The notes under the pieces: model-generated | What the model saw: only the letters and a program-made list of their open reading frames with translations | What the model was told of the DNA's origin: nothing | The model's database searches: none | Shown: in pieces, positions 2 through 8,318 of the stretch | Layout of the letters: each line of letters starts with the position of its first letter | How positions within the stretch are numbered: the stretch's first letter is position 1 | Program-made: the position numbers and the translations under genes | Assembly: GCF_002251735.1 (NCBI RefSeq) | Contig: NZ_NOXS01000033.1 | Span: 74,040 to 98,039, forward strand | From: Elstera cyanobacteriorum | GTDB taxonomy: Bacteria; Pseudomonadota; Alphaproteobacteria; Elsterales; Elsteraceae | Length of the DNA stretch: 24,000 nt | Direction: 5' to 3'

Positions 2-232
2 AAGATTGCGCAAAAAGTGGGGGAAGAGGCGGTGGAAACGGTGATCGAAGCCATTCGCGGTAAGCGCAAGCGCCTGGTTTCGGAAAGCGCCGACCTTCTG
101 TATCATCTCACCCTGCTCTGGGCGGCGTCGGATGTAGAGCCTGGCGACGTGTGGCGCGAACTGGCCCGCCGCGAAGGCGTGTCGGGCTATGCCCATCTTG
201 GCCGCGAAAACGAGAGCGACGACGAAGATTGA
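2..232 (+). CDS. hisE: Phosphoribosyl-ATP pyrophosphatase (HisE), C-terminal part; the 5' end lies outside the window
   Basis: The frame is open from the window edge and reads [48 protein letters not shown]. The ADLLYHL helix and the ..L.RR.G ending are typical of HisE/MazG-like proteins. Stop codon at 230-232. Confidence 0.85.
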
Positions 233-273
233 CCCCGGGGCGGCCCTGCCCCGGTCCTTGTGGGGAGAGCCGC

Positions 274-636
274 GTGTCCTACGATCCGTCCAATATCTTT
301 GCCAAAATTCTCCGGGGCGAAATTCCGTCAAAGCCGGTTTATGAAAGCGACCATGTTCTGGCGTTTCCAGATATTGCACCGCGCGCCCCGGTGCATGTGC
401 TGATCATCCCGAAAGGCGCCTACGTCAGCGCTCAGGATTTCAGCGAAAAAGCCAGCCCGGCGGAAAAAGCCGCTTTCTTCGATGCCATCGGCGCCATCGC
501 CCAACAGTTCGGGATCGCCGACAGCGGTTACCGTCTGATTGCCAATACCGGCGCCCACGGCCATCAGGAAGTGCCGCATTTTCATTTGCATCTTATCGGC
601 GGGCGGGCGCTTGGCTCCATGCTGCCGAACGACTAG
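274..636 (+). CDS. HIT-family (histidine triad) nucleotide hydrolase/transferase
   Basis: Carries the histidine-triad motif HFHLHLIGG plus NIFAKILRGEIP..VYE.D..LAF.DI.P.APVH.LIIPK. I place the start at GTG 274, preceded by GGGGAGAG (262-269). The ORF-track start at 151 overlaps hisE and gives an Arg/Pro-rich non-protein-like N-terminus. Confidence 0.85.
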   Translation: MSYDPSNIFAKILRGEIPSKPVYESDHVLAFPDIAPRAPVHVLIIPKGAYVSAQDFSEKASPAEKAAFFDAIGAIAQQFGIADSGYRLIANTGAHGHQEVPHFHLHLIGGRALGSMLPND

Positions 637-703: not shown

Positions 704-2047
704 TTAGGCGGCGCCCGCTTCGATCAGATCGAGCGGGTGCAGCACTTCCAGCAACAATTGCCCGCGCCCGCCCTGGGTCAGCCGAATGCCATTATCGCGC
801 TCCTCCAGCCGCCGTTTCAGCAAAATGAGGCGGGTGGCGAGATTATCGGAGAGGTGCGGCAGGCCAAGCTGTGGATCGAGCCGCAATTCCCGACTGGAAA
901 AGCGCGTGCGGCCATTGGCGGCGAATTCGCGCAGCAGCTTCCATAAGATCGCCCCGGCAACCCCTTTGATCAGATAATCATCGTTCAAAAACACCGTCGC
1001 TGTGCCCGAGTAATAGCGCACCCGCAAGGCCGATCCGCTGACAGGGCAGTCGCAGGGCGGGGTTTCCTCCGGAAGGTCCGCGTCGAACTCCGAACAGTCG
1101 CCGTCTTGGAACTGCATCAGCAGCGCACCGAAACTCAGCCCGATGACCGATAGCGCGTCTTCAATCTCATACGTGAAGGCGTGATTGCGCGGGCTTTCTA
1201 CAAACAGAACGCCCTTTAGCGTGCCGCCAATTGCAATCGGAACGGCGAGCTGGCTTTGTGGGTCGATCAGGCCCGGTAAGGGGATTTCGGGGGCAAGGTC
1301 ATAGGCATCGCCCGCCGTGCGGCGGATGGCGCGGGTATAGGCATTTTCGTGCAGCATATGATTGATGCGGATCGGGGCGCTAACCTCGGCGCAAACCCCG
1401 ATGACGCCATCGCCCAGCGCTACCTCCGATCCGACCCCGGAGGTTGCATAGCCATGACTGGCGAGGGTATAGAGCCGCCCACTGCCGCGATCCAGCGCGA
1501 GCACCATACCATGCTCGATTCCCAATTCCCGCGCTAAGGTGGGGAATAAGGCAGAAATCAGGGCGTCCCCGCTGCGGCAGCGGCTCAGGGTGTCCTGAAC
1601 CCGCCGCAAAGCAGGCATTAAGCTGGGCTGCGCCGGTAACGGTCGGGCGGCGCTATTGACCTTTTCGATAGCAATGACGCGGTAAATATCGGCCCCGCGC
1701 AGTTGGAACACCTCCGCCATTCCGTGATGGGAGGCGATTCCGGCCAGCTTGGCGCGCATCCGCTCGAACAAAGGGCCGTGGGTTTCGGTGCGCAGATATT
1801 GCACACTAATTCGATATTTCTCCGAACTGCCCGGATGCAGCACCAGCACCTGGGCATAGGGGTTCTCGAGAATATTCTGCCGAGTTTTATTGAAGAACTG
1901 AAAGCTGAGGGCGAGGTGCGACTCGTCGAGATACAGAATGTCCGAAAGGTAGGAGACATTCACCTCCCCCGAGGCCGAGGTGGTGGCGATGGCGGACGGT
2001 AGAATCCCGTCCAGCGCGTCGCGAAAGGCGCTGAGGTGTAAGCTCAT
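704..2047 (-). CDS. Putative one-component sensor regulator: PNPOx-like split barrel + GAF + C-terminal OmpR/PhoB-like winged-helix region
   Basis: 447-aa ORF whose start overlaps the upstream gene stop (ATGA, 2044-2047).
- aa 1-135 look like a PNPOx-like FMN-binding split barrel (LPSAIATTSASGEVNVSYLS..LALSFQFFNKTRQNILENPYAQVLVL..YRISVQY).
- aa ~145-312 look GAF-like (GMVLALDRGSGRLYTLASHGY..GVIGVCAEVSAPIRINH..LAVPIAIGGTLKGVLFVES).
- An acidic Cys-containing linker follows (DGDCSEFDADLPEETPPCDCP).
- aa ~339-435 fit the Trans_reg_C pattern by eye (AILWKLLREFAANGRTRFSSRELRL..NLATRLILLKRRLEE..IRLTQGGRGQLLL).
Domains were assigned by eye only. Confidence 0.65.
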   Translation of the reverse strand: MSLHLSAFRDALDGILPSAIATTSASGEVNVSYLSDILYLDESHLALSFQFFNKTRQNILENPYAQVLVLHPGSSEKYRISVQYLRTETHGPLFERMRAKLAGIASHHGMAEVFQLRGADIYRVIAIEKVNSAARPLPAQPSLMPALRRVQDTLSRCRSGDALISALFPTLARELGIEHGMVLALDRGSGRLYTLASHGYATSGVGSEVALGDGVIGVCAEVSAPIRINHMLHENAYTRAIRRTAGDAYDLAPEIPLPGLIDPQSQLAVPIAIGGTLKGVLFVESPRNHAFTYEIEDALSVIGLSFGALLMQFQDGDCSEFDADLPEETPPCDCPVSGSALRVRYYSGTATVFLNDDYLIKGVAGAILWKLLREFAANGRTRFSSRELRLDPQLGLPHLSDNLATRLILLKRRLEERDNGIRLTQGGRGQLLLEVLHPLDLIEAGAA

Positions 2048-2529
2048 GCCGCCCCCGCAATCTGCCGTCCGGCCTGCGGTCCCGGGGTTTGATCGAAAAT
2101 CGCCTCGGGCCGGTACCGGAAAACGGTGAGCAGTGCAGGATCGTACCCCAGATAGGCGCGCGACTGTGGTTCGGGATAATCCACCTTCTGAAACTCCACC
2201 ACCATGCGCTCAACCGCCCCCAGCAGCCAGTGCTGTTCCCCGGCATCGGCGTCGCGCAGGCCTAGAAACCGGCCTTTGATCTGATAGGTTTGCAAGCTCG
2301 TCGGGCGGCACATGACGCCCGCGACCGAGGCCCCGAGGGGCGGCACCGGGTCGATCATCGTTCGATCGAGACCATTCAGAAAAATACCAACCTCGTCCCC
2401 GCGCCATTGGCAGGCAATCCCGCGCGTGATGACAGGAATGCCGCCAGGACCGGCAACGGCCAGAACAGCCGTGATCGGTCCTTCCAAGAATCGCGCAAGA
2501 TCAGGACTGGGGTAAACCTGGGCCGCCAT
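2044..2529 (-). CDS. PNPOx-like / flavin-reductase-like split-barrel family protein (161 aa)
   Basis: Sequence pattern FLEGPITAVLAVAGPGGIPVITRGIA..GDEVGIFL......YQIKGRF is typical of pyridoxamine-5'-phosphate-oxidase-related split barrels. An RBS GAGGGA lies 4 nt upstream of the ATG. There is a 12-nt gap to the hemerythrin gene and a 4-nt overlap with the downstream gene. Confidence 0.6.
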   Translation of the reverse strand: MAAQVYPSPDLARFLEGPITAVLAVAGPGGIPVITRGIACQWRGDEVGIFLNGLDRTMIDPVPPLGASVAGVMCRPTSLQTYQIKGRFLGLRDADAGEQHWLLGAVERMVVEFQKVDYPEPQSRAYLGYDPALLTVFRYRPEAIFDQTPGPQAGRQIAGAA

Positions 2530-2541
2530 TATCCCTCGCCG

Positions 2542-3213
2542 CTAGGCTGCTATGTTTTCCCATAGTCTTTTCATCTCGAACTCTGTCAAGCGGGCCGTCA
2601 ATAGGTCGGTCACGGCGGCGACCACCGGCGGCGGTGCAGCGGCCCGCAGCCCGGCGAATTTCTCTGCGCGTTGGGCGGCGGTCAGGTTTGGTAGCATCCA
2701 TTGCAGCACCTGCATCGCTTCCTGCGGGCTTTGGCTGGCGACGATCTGATGTTCGATGGCGGCGATTTCTGCATCGCTTAAATGCGCCCACAGGATCTGC
2801 ATATGGCGCGTTTCCTCGTCGTGCATATGCTCGAAATCGATGGCGAGGAACTGGGCAAATTGAAGATAAAGCGCATAGCCCAGCCCTTCCCGCGCGTCCG
2901 GGCGGGCGAGGCTGAGCGCTTCAGCCGCGGCCTCAAGCTGGCGCAGCGCTTCCGCATGGCGGTCGTGCTCGGCGACGGCGGCGGCCTCGCTGCCCGGCAC
3001 AAGGCGCGCCAGGACCGGATGGATGAAGCGATCTTCGTGCGCAATATGCAGCCAATGGACCGCCAAATGGTCGCGCAGGTCGGTCAAGGTTTTACGGGTG
3101 TTATCCTCGTGCTGCCAATCGGCGCGACCGAGTTTGACCAGAATATCCGTAGACCAAGCCCGTAAAGCCTTGTGAATCGGACCGTATAAATCATAGCGCT
3201 GCGGTGTAGACAT
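2542..3213 (-). CDS. Hemerythrin-like (HHE cation-binding) domain protein with a ~70-aa C-terminal extension
   Basis: His/Glu ligand motifs are spaced as in a hemerythrin four-helix bundle: PIHKALR, WLHIAHEDRFIHP, AEHDRH, FEHMHDEE. RBS GGGGGAAGG lies upstream of ATG 3213. This is the first gene of the three-gene operon. Confidence 0.8.
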   Translation of the reverse strand: MSTPQRYDLYGPIHKALRAWSTDILVKLGRADWQHEDNTRKTLTDLRDHLAVHWLHIAHEDRFIHPVLARLVPGSEAAAVAEHDRHAEALRQLEAAAEALSLARPDAREGLGYALYLQFAQFLAIDFEHMHDEETRHMQILWAHLSDAEIAAIEHQIVASQSPQEAMQVLQWMLPNLTAAQRAEKFAGLRAAAPPPVVAAVTDLLTARLTEFEMKRLWENIAA

Positions 3214-3289
3214 TCGACCTTCCCCCGATAAGGTTAAAAACGAGGGAGGCGTTATACAGATTTTATCGAATCACTATTTTATAATAATT

Positions 3290-3318
3290 TGCTAAGGGAA
3301 TGCTAAATATATGCTAAG
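3290..3318 (-). promoter_or_regulatory. Three phased 7-bp direct repeats TGCTAA(G/A) (7-bp repeat + 4-bp spacer, 11-bp period); candidate transcription-factor binding array
   Basis: TGCTAAG at 3290-3296, TGCTAAA at 3301-3307 and TGCTAAG at 3312-3318, with spacers ggaa and tata. The array lies 77-105 bp upstream of the hemerythrin start codon inside an AT-rich island (3214-3375). That island also contains several -10-like hexamers on the minus strand (TAAAAT twice, TATAAC). Confidence 0.45.
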
Positions 3319-3365
3319 AGACATAAAATAGTGCGCTATATGGACTAAGTATTTCCTAGTCTAAT

Positions 3366-3413
3366 TCTAAAAACAAGACGGGCTTCCTGACGCCCCTGTC
3401 AGAAAGCCCGTCT
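3366..3413 (-). terminator. Rho-independent terminator of the MCP gene
   Basis: The minus strand reads AGACGGGCTTTCTGAC-agggg-c-GTCAGGAAGCCCGTCT (arms at 3376-3391 and 3398-3413, one mismatch) followed by TGTTTTTAG. It sits 26 nt after the MCP stop (3439). Confidence 0.75.
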
Positions 3414-3438
3414 GGGGGATTGGTTTATATCTTGGCCG

Positions 3439-5556
3439 CTAGGCTGTGCCGGTGCGAATTGCCCCCAGGAAGCCGTTAACCTCCCGGTCAAGGTCGCCCG
3501 CTTCGCCCGCCAGCAGCTCCGCCGCGTGCAGCACGCCCTTCGCCGCTTCGCCGGTGGAGGTGGTGGCCCCGCGCACCCGTTCGATGATATGGGCGACGCC
3601 CTGGGTTCCTTGGGCGGCTTGATCGGCACTGCGGGCGATTTCGCCCGTGGCGGCACCCTGTTCTTCCACGGCAGCGGCGATGGTGGCGGCGATGCCGCTG
3701 ATATCGCCGATGATCGTATCGATCTGCGTGATCGCGCCGATGGCGGCCCGGGCGCCCTGGGTGATCGAGCCGATTTGCGAGCCGATTTCTTCTGTCGCTT
3801 TTGCCGTCTGCGCCGCCAAATTCTTCACCTCACCCGCGACCACGGCAAAGCCGCGCCCGGCTTCCCCGGCCCGCGCCGCCTCGATAGTGGCGTTGAGGGC
3901 CAGAAGATTGGTCTGCGACGCGATCCCATCGATCAGGCGCGCAACCTCGCCGATGCGTTCCACCGCTTCAGCCAGCCCGCGCACCGTATCGCCCGCCCGC
4001 CGCGCTTCCGCCACGGCCTGATCGGCGATCGTGTTGGAATGCACAACCTGGCGGGAAATTTCGCTGATCGAAACAGTCAATTGCGCCGATGCCGCTGCCA
4101 CGGCATCAACATTGCCGATGGCCTGCGCGGCCGCTGCCGCAACCTCCGAGGTCTGTGCCGTCGCGCCATCGGCCAGGGTCGCCATCGAGCCGGAGGCATT
4201 GCGCATTTCATCCGCCGCCCGCCGGACGGTAGTTACGATGCGCGCCACGCTTTGTTCGAACTGGCTGGCCATTTCATTGAGGGATTGGCGCCGTTCCTCT
4301 GCCGAACGCTGACGCTCGGCCTCGGCTTCAGCCCGTGTGGTTTCAACTTCCATCGCCGTCTGGCGGAAGACATCGAGTGCCCGCGCCATCGTGCCGATTT
4401 CATCGTCCCCAGAAACGCGCAAGGTTTCATTCAGACGCCCCTGGCGCACGGCTTCCATGCCATCTGACAGCAGGGTCAGACGGCGGGCGATGGTGCGATG
4501 GCCGATCCCCCAGCCGACCGCGAGCGCGATCAACAGGCTGGCCCCCGTCAGGGCCATCTGCATGCCCCCGGCCTGTTCGACCAGTTCCTGCGTGCGAACC
4601 CCCTCTGCATGGGCTTCAGCCTGAACGCTTTGGGCCATCTCGTCGATCTGGGCCGACAGCATCTGCGCCTGGGCGCTGATTTTCTTCAGGGTTTGCAGAA
4701 CATTGGTTTGCGCGGCGATCCGCCGCTCGGCAATGACGAAAACGCCGCTTCCCGTATCGGTCGCCAGTCCTAGCAAGCGTTGCACCGGCCCGACCAGATC
4801 AACGTCCTGCGAATCTTTCGACAGGGTGACGAGGCGGGTTTCGAGATGGCGCAGGATCGTTTGGGTCTGCGTCTTGCTGCGCGTAAGCTGGTCGTTGCTG
4901 GTCGCCTGCGCCGCCTGCCGGGCCAGCAGGGACGCGCGTTCGACATCGAGCAGCACGGCGGAGGCTTCTTCGTAGACTGGGAAATGCAGTTCCGCCATCG
5001 CCTGGAGCATTTCCAGGCCCTTGTCGTAATTATTCGACAGTTCCAACGGCACTTCGGTCAGGGTCAGGGAAAGGCTGAAGCGCGCGCGTTCGGCCAGTGG
5101 CGCTACCCGGTCGTTCAAAATGCGCGAGGTGACGGAGATATTTGCCAGTCGCGCCCGTAAATCTTCTTCGGTATTCAGATAGGCTTCGCGCGCTTTATGA
5201 ACCTGGGTTACCTGTTCATTGAACGCGGTGACCATTTCACTCAGCTTTTCATTGTTCTTAAGCTGGCGGGTTAAGGTCCATAGCTTTTCGATGCGATTAT
5301 CAAGCGACAGCTTGCTCGACTCGAGGTTCGCGAGGTCCGGCGCATCCCCTAGCGTTGGCGCCAGCGCGGCAATGGCATTGGCTTCGGCCTTAAGGTCGCC
5401 CGCAACGGCGACCGCCGGTAGTTTTTCGGTCTGAACGACGGCAAAGGCCGCGCCCATCCGATCATATCCCCACAGGGCGGCCCCGCCGCCAACGGCAGCA
5501 AGGGATGCCAAACCCGCCAAAGCCACGAACAGCTTTGTCTTGATCGTTAGCCGCAT
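3439..5556 (-). CDS. Methyl-accepting chemotaxis protein (TM1, ~300-aa helical periplasmic sensor, TM2, HAMP, MCP signalling domain)
   Basis: Carries the highly conserved signalling hairpin [46 protein letters not shown]-like segment follows TM2 ([26 protein letters not shown]). N-terminal TM helix [35 protein letters not shown] lies upstream of the ATG. Confidence 0.95.
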
Positions 5557-5646: not shown

Positions 5647-6534
5647 TTATCCGCCGAAAAGAGTCGATTTAACCCCGTGAATTGACGCAAACGTAAGATT
5701 ATTTTGTTGCTTAACTCCGGTAAGTGCCCAAAGTTGCCCGCCTTTTCCGGCTCCATCTTGCGCCGAGGTGATAAATAAAACGTCAAGATTGTTTCCCCCA
5801 AAACAACAAGAGGTCGGGCGATTGACCGGTAAGGCGATCACCCGCTCGCGGCTACCGTCCGGCCGGTAGCGGGTGATCCGCGCGCCGTCCCAATGGCAGG
5901 ACCAGATATGATCATCAGCATCGAGGCACAGCCCATCCGGGAACCCTTCGTCCGGCGCCAATTGGGCAAAAACGCGCTTTTCCCCCGCCGTTCCGGTTTC
6001 GGGGTCGTAGGGGGCGGTATAGATGCACCGATTGGCGCTATCGGTCAGATAGAGGGTGCGCCCGTCGCCCGACCAGCCGATCCCATTGGTCACGGTGAAA
6101 TTCACCGGATAGGGCCTTACCTCCGGCCTGCTGCCCGTCAAGCAGTAGAAATGCCCGGTCGGGGCGTTTTCGGCATCGTCCATGCTGCCGATCCAGAGGC
6201 GCCCCGCCGCATCGACCTTACCGTCGTTCAGCCGGTTGCCCGGCATCTCCGGCTCCAGCACGGCGAAGGGCGTTAGCGTTCCCGTCTCCGGCACGAACCG
6301 GTAGACGCCCGATTTCAGCCCGACCAGCCAATCGCCCCGCTTGGTCGGCACCGCCGCGCCAACCGGTTCCGGCAGAGGGAAGCGGGTATGCGCCCCGTCC
6401 TTTCGGCCACCGTTGAGCCGGTGTAGGGCGGGGTTCTTGATATCCACCCACCAGATCGCCCCGTCATGCCAAACCGGGCCTTCGCCCAAGCGGCAGGAAA
6501 AATCGGTCAGTTGCGTCAAAACCGGTTCGGACAT
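5647..6534 (-). CDS. SMP-30/gluconolactonase/LRE-family lactonase (probable sugar-acid lactonase)
   Basis: Motifs CRLGEGPVWHDG..WWVDI, NRLNDGKVDAAGRLWIGSM, TNGIGWSGDGRTLYLTDS, PDGLCLDADDHIW and NRPTSCCFGG match six-bladed propeller lactonases of the regucalcin family. It is the last gene of the sugar-acid operon. Confidence 0.85.
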   Translation of the reverse strand: MSEPVLTQLTDFSCRLGEGPVWHDGAIWWVDIKNPALHRLNGGRKDGAHTRFPLPEPVGAAVPTKRGDWLVGLKSGVYRFVPETGTLTPFAVLEPEMPGNRLNDGKVDAAGRLWIGSMDDAENAPTGHFYCLTGSRPEVRPYPVNFTVTNGIGWSGDGRTLYLTDSANRCIYTAPYDPETGTAGEKRVFAQLAPDEGFPDGLCLDADDHIWSCHWDGARITRYRPDGSRERVIALPVNRPTSCCFGGNNLDVLFITSAQDGAGKGGQLWALTGVKQQNNLTFASIHGVKSTLFGG

Positions 6535-6545
6535 CGGGCACTCGC

Positions 6546-8318
6546 TTAGTGGGAGTGGCGCAGGCCGCCCTTGGCGGCGACGCGGTGGAAGGCGGTCGCG
6601 GCTTCAAGGCAACCGCCGGTCTGAAGCTGGCCGACCGTCTGGCGATAGAGTTGCTGCCACGGCGTTTGATCGGCGGGGATGCTTGGCTGCGGCAGTTCGG
6701 ACGCTTTGCGTGCCTCCCATTCGCCTGCGGGCAGCAGCACATCGACCCGGCGGGTCTTGAGATCGACGCGGACTGTATCCCCCGTCTTCAGCCACGCAAG
6801 GCCGCCACCCGCCGCCGCTTCCGGCGAGACATTCAGGATCGATGGGCTGCCGGAGGTGCCGGATTGCCGCCCGTCCCCCATCGTCGGCAGGGCGAGAATG
6901 CCACGCTGGATCAGCGCATCGGGCGGCTGCATGTTCACGACTTCCGCCGAGCCGGGATAGCCAATCGGGCCGCAGCCGCGAATGACCAGGATGCAGTTTT
7001 CGTCAATATTCAGCGCCGGATCGTTCAGCCGATGGTGATAATCCTCCGGCCCGTCGAAGACGATGGCGCGCGCCTCGAAGGCGTCGGGATCGTTCGGGTT
7101 CGACAGGTAGCGCGCGCGGAAATCGGCGTCGATCACGCTGGTTTTCAGCAGGGCGCTGTCAAAAAGATTGCCGCTGAGCACGAGGAAACCTGCCGAAGGT
7201 TTTAGCGGGGCCGCATAGGCGCGGATCACCTCGCGGTTCGGTTCCGGAACCTTTTCCAGAATCGGGCCGATGGGCTTGCCGGTGACGGTGATCGCATCGC
7301 CGTCTAGTTTCCCGGCCTTCAGCAGTTCGGCCATGACGGCGGGCACTGCCCCGGCGCGGTGGAAGCTTTCGCCCAGGAAGCGGCCCGCCGGCTGGCAATC
7401 GACCAGCAAGGGAATGTCGTGCCCATGGGTCTGCCAATCCTCCAGCGTCAGATCGACCCCGGCATGGCGGGCGATGGCGATCAGATGCGGCGGGCAATTG
7501 GTCGAGGCGCCGATGGCGGAGGCGGTGCGAATGGCGTTCAGGAAGGCCGGGCGCGTCATCACTTTGCGCGGCGTCAGGTCTTCCGCCACCATCGCCACAA
7601 TCCGCCGCCCGGTTTCATAGGCCATATGGCCGCGTTCGGCATAGGGGGCGGGGATCGAGCCGCAATAGGGCAGGGACATGCCCAAGGCCTCGGCGACCGA
7701 ATTCATCGATAGGGCGGTGCCCATCGTATTGCAATGGCCGACCGAGGGGGCCGAGGCGGCGGCGGCCTGCATAAACTGTTCGTAGTCGATTTCCCCGGCG
7801 GCGAGGCGCTTGCGCGAGTCCCAGATAATCGTGCCAGACCCGGCAAGGCGGCCCTGCCAATGCCCATCCAGCATCGGCCCGCCCGAGAGCACGATGGCAG
7901 GAATATCGACCGTACCCGCCGCCATTAGGCAGGCGGGGGTGGTTTTATCGCAGCCGGTGGTCAGCACCACGCCGTCGAGCGGGTAGCCGTGTAGCACTTC
8001 GACAAGGCCGAGATAGGCGAGGTTGCGGTCAATCGCCGCCGTCGGGCGCCGCCCGGTTTCCTGGATTGGATGGACGGGAAACTCGATGGGAATGCCGCCC
8101 GCGTCGCGGATGCCGTCGCGCACGCGCTTGGCGAGATCGAGGTGGTGGCGGTTGCACGGCGATAGGTCCGACCCGGTTTGCGCGATCCCGATGATCGGCT
8201 TACCGGACTGCAACTCGTCGCGCGTGATGCCGTAATTCAGGTAGCGTTCCAGATAGAGCGCGGTCATATCGGGGTTTTCGGGATTATCGAACCATTCCCG
8301 GCTGCGGAGCTTTTTCAT
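6546..8318 (-). CDS. IlvD/Edd-family sugar-acid dehydratase (XylD / L-arabinonate-dehydratase-like; by context a galactonate-type dehydratase)
   Basis: 590 aa. The sequence REWFDNPENPDMTALYLERYLNYGIT..GKPIIGIAQTGSDLSPCNRHHL..TTGCDKTTPACLMAA..GHCNTMGTA..PTMGDGRQSGT..RHSH is near-collinear with my recollection of Caulobacter XylD and other pentonate/hexonate dehydratases of this family. Confidence 0.9.
   Translation of the reverse strand: MKKLRSREWFDNPENPDMTALYLERYLNYGITRDELQSGKPIIGIAQTGSDLSPCNRHHLDLAKRVRDGIRDAGGIPIEFPVHPIQETGRRPTAAIDRNLAYLGLVEVLHGYPLDGVVLTTGCDKTTPACLMAAGTVDIPAIVLSGGPMLDGHWQGRLAGSGTIIWDSRKRLAAGEIDYEQFMQAAAASAPSVGHCNTMGTALSMNSVAEALGMSLPYCGSIPAPYAERGHMAYETGRRIVAMVAEDLTPRKVMTRPAFLNAIRTASAIGASTNCPPHLIAIARHAGVDLTLEDWQTHGHDIPLLVDCQPAGRFLGESFHRAGAVPAVMAELLKAGKLDGDAITVTGKPIGPILEKVPEPNREVIRAYAAPLKPSAGFLVLSGNLFDSALLKTSVIDADFRARYLSNPNDPDAFEARAIVFDGPEDYHHRLNDPALNIDENCILVIRGCGPIGYPGSAEVVNMQPPDALIQRGILALPTMGDGRQSGTSGSPSILNVSPEAAAGGGLAWLKTGDTVRVDLKTRRVDVLLPAGEWEARKASELPQPSIPADQTPWQQLYRQTVGQLQTGGCLEAATAFHRVAAKGGLRHSH

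Follow-up and report, generated by a model that had tools for sequence, protein, structure and literature searches.

A conserved gene pair encoding a split-barrel protein and a GAF-containing putative one-component regulator, associated with hemerythrin or cytochrome c genes in Proteobacteria

Introduction

Elstera cyanobacteriorum carries, at one end of a 24,000-nucleotide (nt) stretch of contig NZ_NOXS01000033.1 (assembly GCF_002251735.1, positions 74,040 to 98,039 of the forward strand; hereafter the window), three tightly packed minus-strand genes that we designate A, B and C. Gene A encodes a hemerythrin-like protein, gene B a small stand-alone protein with the split-barrel fold of the PNPOx-like proteins, and gene C a larger protein in which a split barrel is followed by a GAF domain and a C-terminal domain with the predicted topology of a DNA-binding output. 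The locus raises the question of which of these proteins perceives a signal and which is made in response to it. A first-pass annotation, prepared from the sequence of the window, had taken the trio for a self-contained sensor in which a gas- or iron-sensing hemerythrin was assisted by a flavin- or haem-binding accessory protein and read out by a one-component regulator, and it had named no characterised system of this composition. Full-text literature searches agree with it on the last point, in that they returned no publication on the gene set or on the arrangement of B and C, and no published function was found.

Here, we describe a computational analysis of this locus and of its relatives in other bacteria. 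B and C are the invariant unit of the module, and the position of a conserved array of 11-base-pair (bp) repeats makes the hemerythrin look like the regulated output of this unit rather than its sensor. We regard it as probable that B and C together constitute a cytoplasmic, phosphorylation-independent one-component sensor and activator of a hemerythrin gene or, in other genomes, of a cytochrome c gene.

Results

Genes B and C are inseparable, and hemerythrin is one of two alternative neighbours

Relatives of C are encoded in at least 583 GTDB species genomes, mostly of Burkholderiales, Rhodocyclales, Xanthomonadales and Nevskiales, and more than 7800 homologues of C are present in the protein collection. 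The family of B comprises 1922 cluster representatives at 50% identity, recovered by running a profile against 1.8 billion such representatives. We examined the gene order at 85 loci from other bacteria, 80 of them from a scan of species genomes and five from contig look-ups, one locus being a duplicate. A homologue of B lies immediately upstream of C at every one of these loci, and at 70 of them the stop codon of B and the start codon of C overlap by 4 nt. Furthermore, natural fusions exist in which B is joined to C through a linker (P0165, of 660 amino acids (aa), and L019). The first-pass annotation had asked whether the trio co-occurs across genomes; the gene set does recur widely, with B and C adjacent without exception and the hemerythrin present in part.

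At 53 of the 85 loci, B-C stands next to an orthologue of the hemerythrin gene A (38% identity). This gene is convergent with C, tail-to-tail, at 51 of these 53, where the two stop codons are separated by a median of 6 nt, and it is found upstream of B-C on the same strand only in the Elstera clade (the window, L005 and L086 to L089). The remaining 32 loci have no adjacent hemerythrin. A gene for a small secreted monohaem cytochrome c is adjacent to B-C at 15 loci, 14 of which are without an adjacent hemerythrin, and it often occupies the same position as the hemerythrin gene, tail-to-tail with C. This cytochrome is related to the single haem domains of dehydrogenase cytochrome subunits and is marked by a signal peptide and by CNDCH and PPMPW motifs. 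One or the other of the two genes stands beside B-C at 67 of the 85 loci.

The convergent arrangement has a feature of its own. Among the 51 convergent pairs (L001 to L085), the gap between the stop codons of the hemerythrin gene and C is 30 nt or less in 41, and 14 pairs overlap, which leaves no space for a terminator. Transcripts that read through from the hemerythrin promoter, once induced, would run antisense to C-B, a possible source of negative feedback. The cytochrome c gene is easily overlooked; in Azoarcus sp. KH32C (L002, 9454-10057) it is annotated "hypothetical protein" and falls under the Pfam thresholds, although its product has the signal peptide and both motifs. L026, L040, L042, L045, L063 and L082 are further loci of this kind.

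A four-unit array of 11-bp repeats precedes the hemerythrin and cytochrome c genes

The region upstream of gene A contains a predicted operator of four tandem 11-bp units (Table 1). Three exact TTAGCA units at 11-bp spacing did not occur in any of 100 shuffles of the window. Across six loci of the Elstera clade, it is the operator block that is conserved within the intergenic region. An array of the same four-unit, 11-bp design, with the core TTAGSA, precedes hemerythrin and cytochrome c genes in Beta- and Gammaproteobacteria; upstream of the hemerythrin genes its consensus is TTAgGAAAttc TTAGGAattcc tTAGc.Aa.aT TTAGgAAcgc.

The distribution of this array among the 85 loci follows the neighbouring genes. 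A strict search for the four-unit pattern found it in 27 of the 53 hemerythrin upstream regions, in none of the 85 regions upstream of B and in none of the shuffles, and as a control on the period no array was found at periods of 8-10 or 12-14. A weight matrix, under which the operator of the window scores 42 bits, gave scores above those of every shuffle in 50 of the 53 hemerythrin upstream regions, in all 15 of those of close cytochrome c genes and in one of the 85 regions upstream of B; this matrix was built on the same loci that it later scored and is partly circular, a reservation that applies neither to the strict scan nor to the period control. Of the three hemerythrin genes that escaped the matrix, two follow a cytochrome c gene, and the third shares the strand of C and lies downstream of it. 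The sole match upstream of B belongs to L004, a member of the Elstera clade in which the hemerythrin has been lost and an operator-like site kept. At this locus (L004 4168-4520) C is 74% identical to that of the window, and the site, of 22.6 bits, is directly upstream of B.

The array stands at a fixed distance from a candidate promoter element. In the window a putative -10 hexamer follows the array by 17 nt, the distance at which a TAGACT-type -10 is found in other taxa, and no -35 hexamer is present at 17 nt from it. The consensus of 42 sites has cCTA.ACT at a fixed offset from the array, that is, a TAnnnT box that is typically CTAGACT. The predicted operator geometry, in which 11-bp direct repeats cover a -35 region that has no -35 hexamer, is conserved across three proteobacterial classes. 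In genomes outside the Elstera clade the hemerythrin is a separate, convergent gene with the operator in front of it, and it behaves as a regulated target more than as an obligate input.

Several further sites were noted around the array. A perfect 11-nt inverted repeat, CACTATTTTAT and ATAAAATAGTG at 3272-3282 and 3323-3333, brackets the operator of the window, with one arm overlapping unit 4. We rejected it as a second operator; the other arm is not conserved in L086, at 89% identity, and the repeat is probably incidental. Orphan operators that point into the 3' end of C and have no target gene behind them are found, all on the minus strand, in L059 (about 5461), L065 (about 5407), L066 (about 5393) and L085 (5433-5476), and may be left over from a hemerythrin gene that was lost, or may act on C as antisense promoters. 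Finally, an operator-first scan of metagenome contigs was discarded as evidence on the regulon: the matches listed are mostly satellites of 11-bp period from few samples, and a hemerythrin is present in one of the 120 loci listed (L196). The long 11-bp-period satellites in L090 to L209 (for example L112 and L124), on contigs of about 46% G+C, match the TTAGSA spacing and are unrelated to the operator.

The hemerythrin is better placed as a target than as the sensor

By its conserved ligand set, the product of gene A is a hemerythrin-like di-iron protein, as the first-pass annotation had recognised. The ligands H14, H56-x3-E60, H83 and H129-x3-E133 are invariant in nine homologues down to 29% identity. 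The protein consists of an N-terminal HHE domain and a helical C-terminal extension of about 90 aa. Taken alone, the A sequence of the window scores 11.2 bits (E 0.52) against the Pfam hemerythrin family PF01814, for which the cut-off is 25.3; seven of the nine aligned members of the family match PF01814, with a best E of 1e-8, and a profile of the family retrieves from the PDB the hemerythrin domain of FBXL5 (E 1.4e-9, residues 27-161). FBXL5 is a bona fide iron and oxygen sensor.

This kinship gives weight to an explanation close to that of the first-pass annotation, in which the hemerythrin is the primary sensor of O2, nitric oxide (NO) or iron and signals to C by protein contact, with B as an accessory and all three proteins in one obligate complex. 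The tightly packed A-B-C operon of the window and its clade relatives fits such a complex, and so does the rank of hemerythrin as the commonest neighbour of B-C. The comparison across bacteria, however, separates what the complex would hold together, since the hemerythrin is not adjacent at 32 loci, 14 of which have the cytochrome c in its stead, and is convergent and separately transcribed at nearly all the others. Moreover, it is the hemerythrin gene and not B-C that carries the operator, and L004 has retained both operator and B-C in the absence of a hemerythrin. We consider a hemerythrin sensor unlikely, and the corresponding part of the first-pass model is not upheld: B-C is invariant, the hemerythrin is dispensable, and the operator precedes the hemerythrin gene. 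Feedback of the hemerythrin on C is possible.

B and, probably, the N-terminal domain of C are split barrels

Pfam and NCBIfam contain no family that matches B at E <= 1, and its assignment comes from structure. The AlphaFold model of B has a predicted local distance difference test (pLDDT) score of 92.9, and Foldseek relates it with probability 1.0 to split barrels that bind flavin mononucleotide (FMN), F420 or haem. The match to 3f7e has an E of 1.4e-6, further matches include 6vna, 7kpz and 2iab, and the haem-binding proteins among the matches are HupZ, Pden_1323, MSMEG_4975, NohD and GluTRBP. A QTPGPxAG motif near the C-terminus of B is invariant, and B has no conserved His or Cys fit to serve as an axial ligand.

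In C, whose AlphaFold model has a pLDDT of 83, the N-terminal domain is probably a split barrel as well. The C sequence of the window scores 23.7 bits (E 6.8e-5) against PNPOx_N (PF01243), under the cut-off of 28.1, and most of the listed homologues of C have PF01243 matches on record in Pfam. Foldseek aligned this domain with the FMN-binding protein 3in6 (target-normalised template modelling score 0.74, root-mean-square deviation 2.9). The domain has three near-invariant histidines, H44, H71 and H107, and a phosphate-binding-like motif, FFNKTRxN, which we take to resemble a flavin-phosphate site. The GAF region that follows exceeds the cut-off for GAF_2 (32.8 bits against 28.6), and its Foldseek matches are the GAF domains of PtsP (3trc, E 1.4e-8), Nlh2 and phytochromes, at about E 1e-8. 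The split barrels of B and C and the GAF domain had all been read from the sequence by the first-pass annotation, and the models, Foldseek (E 1e-6 for B) and Pfam support these assignments.

A second explanation retains this architecture and makes haem or iron the signal: the barrel of B and the N-terminal domain of C would bind haem in the manner of GluTRBP, HugZ, HupZ and Pden_1323, and C would match the synthesis of iron and haem proteins to supply. Non-enzymatic haem-sensing split-barrel regulators are on record (PMC11602992). The haem-binding matches of B, the iron content of both alternative targets and the near-invariant histidines of C are all in keeping with this explanation, but the N-terminal domain of C matches an FMN-type family and an FMN-binding structure and keeps a motif that resembles a flavin-phosphate site, and B offers no conserved His or Cys as an axial ligand. 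Additionally, the module has no linked genes for haem uptake or iron transport. On these grounds a haem or iron signal seems improbable to us.

The C-terminal domain of C has the predicted topology of a winged helix

Residues 339-447 of C are connected to the GAF domain by a disordered linker and are modelled at a pLDDT of about 70-93, mostly at least 80. The elements of this domain follow one another as three strands, helix 1, a strand, helix 2, a 12-residue loop, helix 3 and three strands, an order that we take to be the plan of the OmpR/PhoB effector domain. It is the most conserved part of the C family, with the motifs YLIKGVAG, DNLxxRLxLLxRRL and GRG, and it is basic. Neither Pfam nor NCBIfam finds a Response_reg receiver domain in C, and NCBIfam gives no significant match to the C-terminal domain. 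We infer from the predicted topology that this domain works like an OmpR-type winged helix, and membership of Trans_reg_C is not established. The DNA-binding output that the first-pass annotation had proposed for C is accordingly retained in part: the predicted topology and the conserved operator speak for it, and no sequence model does.

It is very improbable that the genes instead encode an enzyme system, for example a flavin- or haem-dependent oxidoreductase with a di-iron oxygenase, in which C is no transcription factor and the operator is recognised by an unrelated regulator from another locus. In favour of this reading, enzymes make up most of the characterised split-barrel proteins, and no DNA-binding family matches the C-terminal domain in sequence. 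Against it, a cytoplasmic hemerythrin and a secreted cytochrome c that are interchangeable are hard to place in one pathway, B-C is accompanied by the operator in three proteobacterial classes, the basic C-terminal domain is the best-conserved one and has a predicted winged-helix topology, and no substrate-related genes are conserved nearby.

Layout of the locus and its flanks

The features of the locus are collected in Table 1. The three genes are packed as the first-pass annotation had described, with a gap of 12 nt (2530-2541) between A and B and a 4-nt ATGA overlap (2044-2047) between B and C; the start codon of A is the ATG at 3213. The AT-rich promoter island and the upstream terminator that it had noted are also present. 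The G+C content is 0.43-0.50 over about 3000-3450, against about 0.6-0.65 in the flanks, and the terminator, with its 16-bp stem and T run, directly follows a gene for a methyl-accepting chemotaxis protein (MCP) at 3439-5556. Each of the three proteins has homologues, the closest of which, at 99-100% identity, are from Elstera cyanobacteriorum and metagenomes and bear the names "hypothetical protein", "Hemerythrin-like domain-containing protein" and "GAF domain-containing protein".

Table 1. Features of the A-B-C locus, in order of position in the window
Feature	Position	Strand	Remarks
Gene C	704-2047	-	split barrel, GAF and C-terminal domain, 447 aa; stop codon 704-706
C residues 339-447	707-1033	-	putative OmpR/PhoB-type winged helix-turn-helix
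C residues 140-315	1103-1630	-	GAF domain
C residues 1-132	1652-2047	-	split-barrel domain with phosphate-binding-like motif FQFFNKTRQNILENP
Gene B	2044-2529	-	stand-alone split-barrel (PNPOx-like fold) protein, 161 aa
Gene A	2542-3213	-	hemerythrin-like di-iron protein, 223 aa
Ribosome-binding site of gene A	3218-3226	-	GGGGGAAGG; read from sequence
Putative -10 hexamer	3251-3256	-	TATAAC, 17 nt past the array; promoter role inferred
Predicted operator	3274-3317	-	four tandem 11-bp units, TTAGCAtatat TTAGCAttccc TTAGCAaatta TTATAAaatag
Intrinsic terminator of the upstream MCP gene	3376-3413	-	16-bp stem, 6-nt loop, T-rich tail; upstream limit of the module

A functional link between the trio and the MCP, which the first-pass annotation had itself doubted, was rejected. 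A strong terminator intervenes, and we see no association because the gene upstream of the trio varies within the Elstera clade, being an MCP gene, a gene for a DAO-family oxidoreductase dependent on flavin adenine dinucleotide, or a patatin gene. Downstream of C, the end of hisE (PRA-PH) and a HIT-family gene (17-636, plus strand) converge on C, and this HIT-hisE pair is constant in all loci of the Elstera clade. Upstream of the MCP gene, at 5647-8318 on the minus strand, an SMP-30/gluconolactonase-like gene stands beside a gene for an IlvD/Edd-family dehydratase; the two look like a sugar-acid pathway pair and have no relation to A-B-C. An Rfam scan of the window found no RNA family.

Discussion

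The arrangement of these genes suggests how the module might operate. Split barrels are normally dimers that hold their cofactor at the interface. B would pair with the split-barrel domain of C to form a pseudo-dimeric, heterodimeric barrel, and this barrel would hold a flavin, probably, or possibly haem; our preference for flavin comes from the match of the C domain to the FMN-type PNPOx_N model and its retention of the FFNKTRxN motif. The barrel and the GAF domain would then sense an intracellular signal related to redox state, O2, NO or haem. The winged-helix-like domain of C would bind the four head-to-tail 11-bp sites, and from this array, ending 17 nt upstream of the -10 of a promoter that has no -35, C would activate transcription. 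The gene under control would encode an iron protein; most genomes have an FBXL5-type hemerythrin in this role, and others a small periplasmic monohaem cytochrome c. Within the Elstera lineage, the gene for hemerythrin appears to have moved in front of B-C, so that a single operator-bearing promoter would drive A-B-C, with positive autoregulation as the consequence. As to the nature of the signal there are only hints, namely that both targets are iron proteins and that many of the carriers are denitrifiers.

Several observations weigh against this model. The C-terminal domain found no Pfam match at E <= 10 in any of 21 members and no match in a profile search of the PDB, and its alignment by hhalign with OmpR, PhoB and three regulators derived from the loci had a probability of 0.1, in a comparison of two shallow profiles (about two effective sequences each) that has little power and that aligned only helix 3 of C, at the equivalent position. 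Two fold searches with the full-length model of C listed GAF and split-barrel matches, the GAF matches being dominant, and nothing else. B and the N-terminal domain of C aligned in register and without significance (hhalign E 0.011, probability 4%), and the idea that B is a recognisable paralogue of that domain was dropped on this result. What points to a heterodimer of B and C is their common fold, their adjacency and the existence of fusions. C is the candidate for the operator-binding protein as the only candidate DNA-binding protein in the module, and its binding is proposed from the co-localisation of the two; activation, as opposed to repression, is suggested by the promoter geometry. 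The partial circularity of the weight matrix belongs here as well, as do the 18 of the 85 loci that have neither a hemerythrin nor a cytochrome c gene within 4 kb.

We would extend the activator model only tentatively, and with slightly less than even confidence, to the larger claim that these thousands of proteins, from at least 583 species, make up a large family of one-component regulators that has not been described. In this family a heterodimeric split barrel of B and C and a GAF domain would control an OmpR-like winged helix without phosphorylation, and the regulon would consist of either an FBXL5-type hemerythrin or a periplasmic cytochrome c. If true, the family would represent a new route for the cytoplasmic sensing of redox state, O2, NO or haem in members of the Alpha-, Beta- and Gammaproteobacteria, including many denitrifiers. 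Environmental Beta- and Gammaproteobacteria, and some Alphaproteobacteria, contain the C family in abundance; its members bear only the annotation "GAF domain-containing protein" or the wrong one of "adenylate cyclase", and B is annotated as "hypothetical". A conserved partner protein, a mapped operator of defined geometry and two alternative target genes are now in hand for direct tests. A regulatory context would also be gained for a bacterial hemerythrin that is widespread and that has mammalian FBXL5 as its closest relative of solved structure.

One-component regulators as such are known; what appears to be undescribed here is the way in which the domains are combined, together with the dedicated split-barrel partner, the operator and its regulon. 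The fold of B and of the N-terminal domain of C is that of a large superfamily, which includes the non-enzymatic regulator GluTRBP and provides a precedent for split barrels as cofactor-dependent regulators (PMC11602992). The present module differs in that a dedicated stand-alone barrel is strictly paired, and occasionally fused, with a protein that combines a split barrel, a GAF domain and a predicted DNA-binding domain. The hemerythrin shares the H-HxxxE-H-HxxxE ligand set of FBXL5 and the bacterial HHE proteins (PF01814); unlike them, A is a bacterial stand-alone protein with a helical C-terminal extension, and it looks like a regulated product. The N-terminal position of its HHE domain, and FBXL5 as its best match among solved structures, set A apart from the YtfE/RIC type.

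Among transcription factors, NorR, NifA and FhlA resemble C in joining a GAF sensor to a transcriptional output, and the likeness to NorR extends to the proposed target, since NorR of Ralstonia eutropha controls norA, which also encodes a hemerythrin-like di-iron protein. These three, however, belong to the σ54 enhancer-binding proteins and have an AAA+ domain and a Fis-type helix-turn-helix, neither of which is present in C. Another parallel is with the OmpR/PhoB activators, which act on tandem direct repeats. Residues 339-447 of C have the same predicted order of elements, and the predicted operator described here is built like a Pho box, with head-to-tail 11-bp repeats over and upstream of a -35 region that has no -35 hexamer. 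In contrast to OmpR and PhoB, C has no receiver domain or phosphorylation and uses a split barrel and a GAF domain as its input, its C-terminal domain has no detectable sequence similarity to Trans_reg_C, and its array consists of four units with the core TTAGSA. The module would add a case in which an OmpR-type output is driven by cofactor-binding domains instead of phosphorylation.

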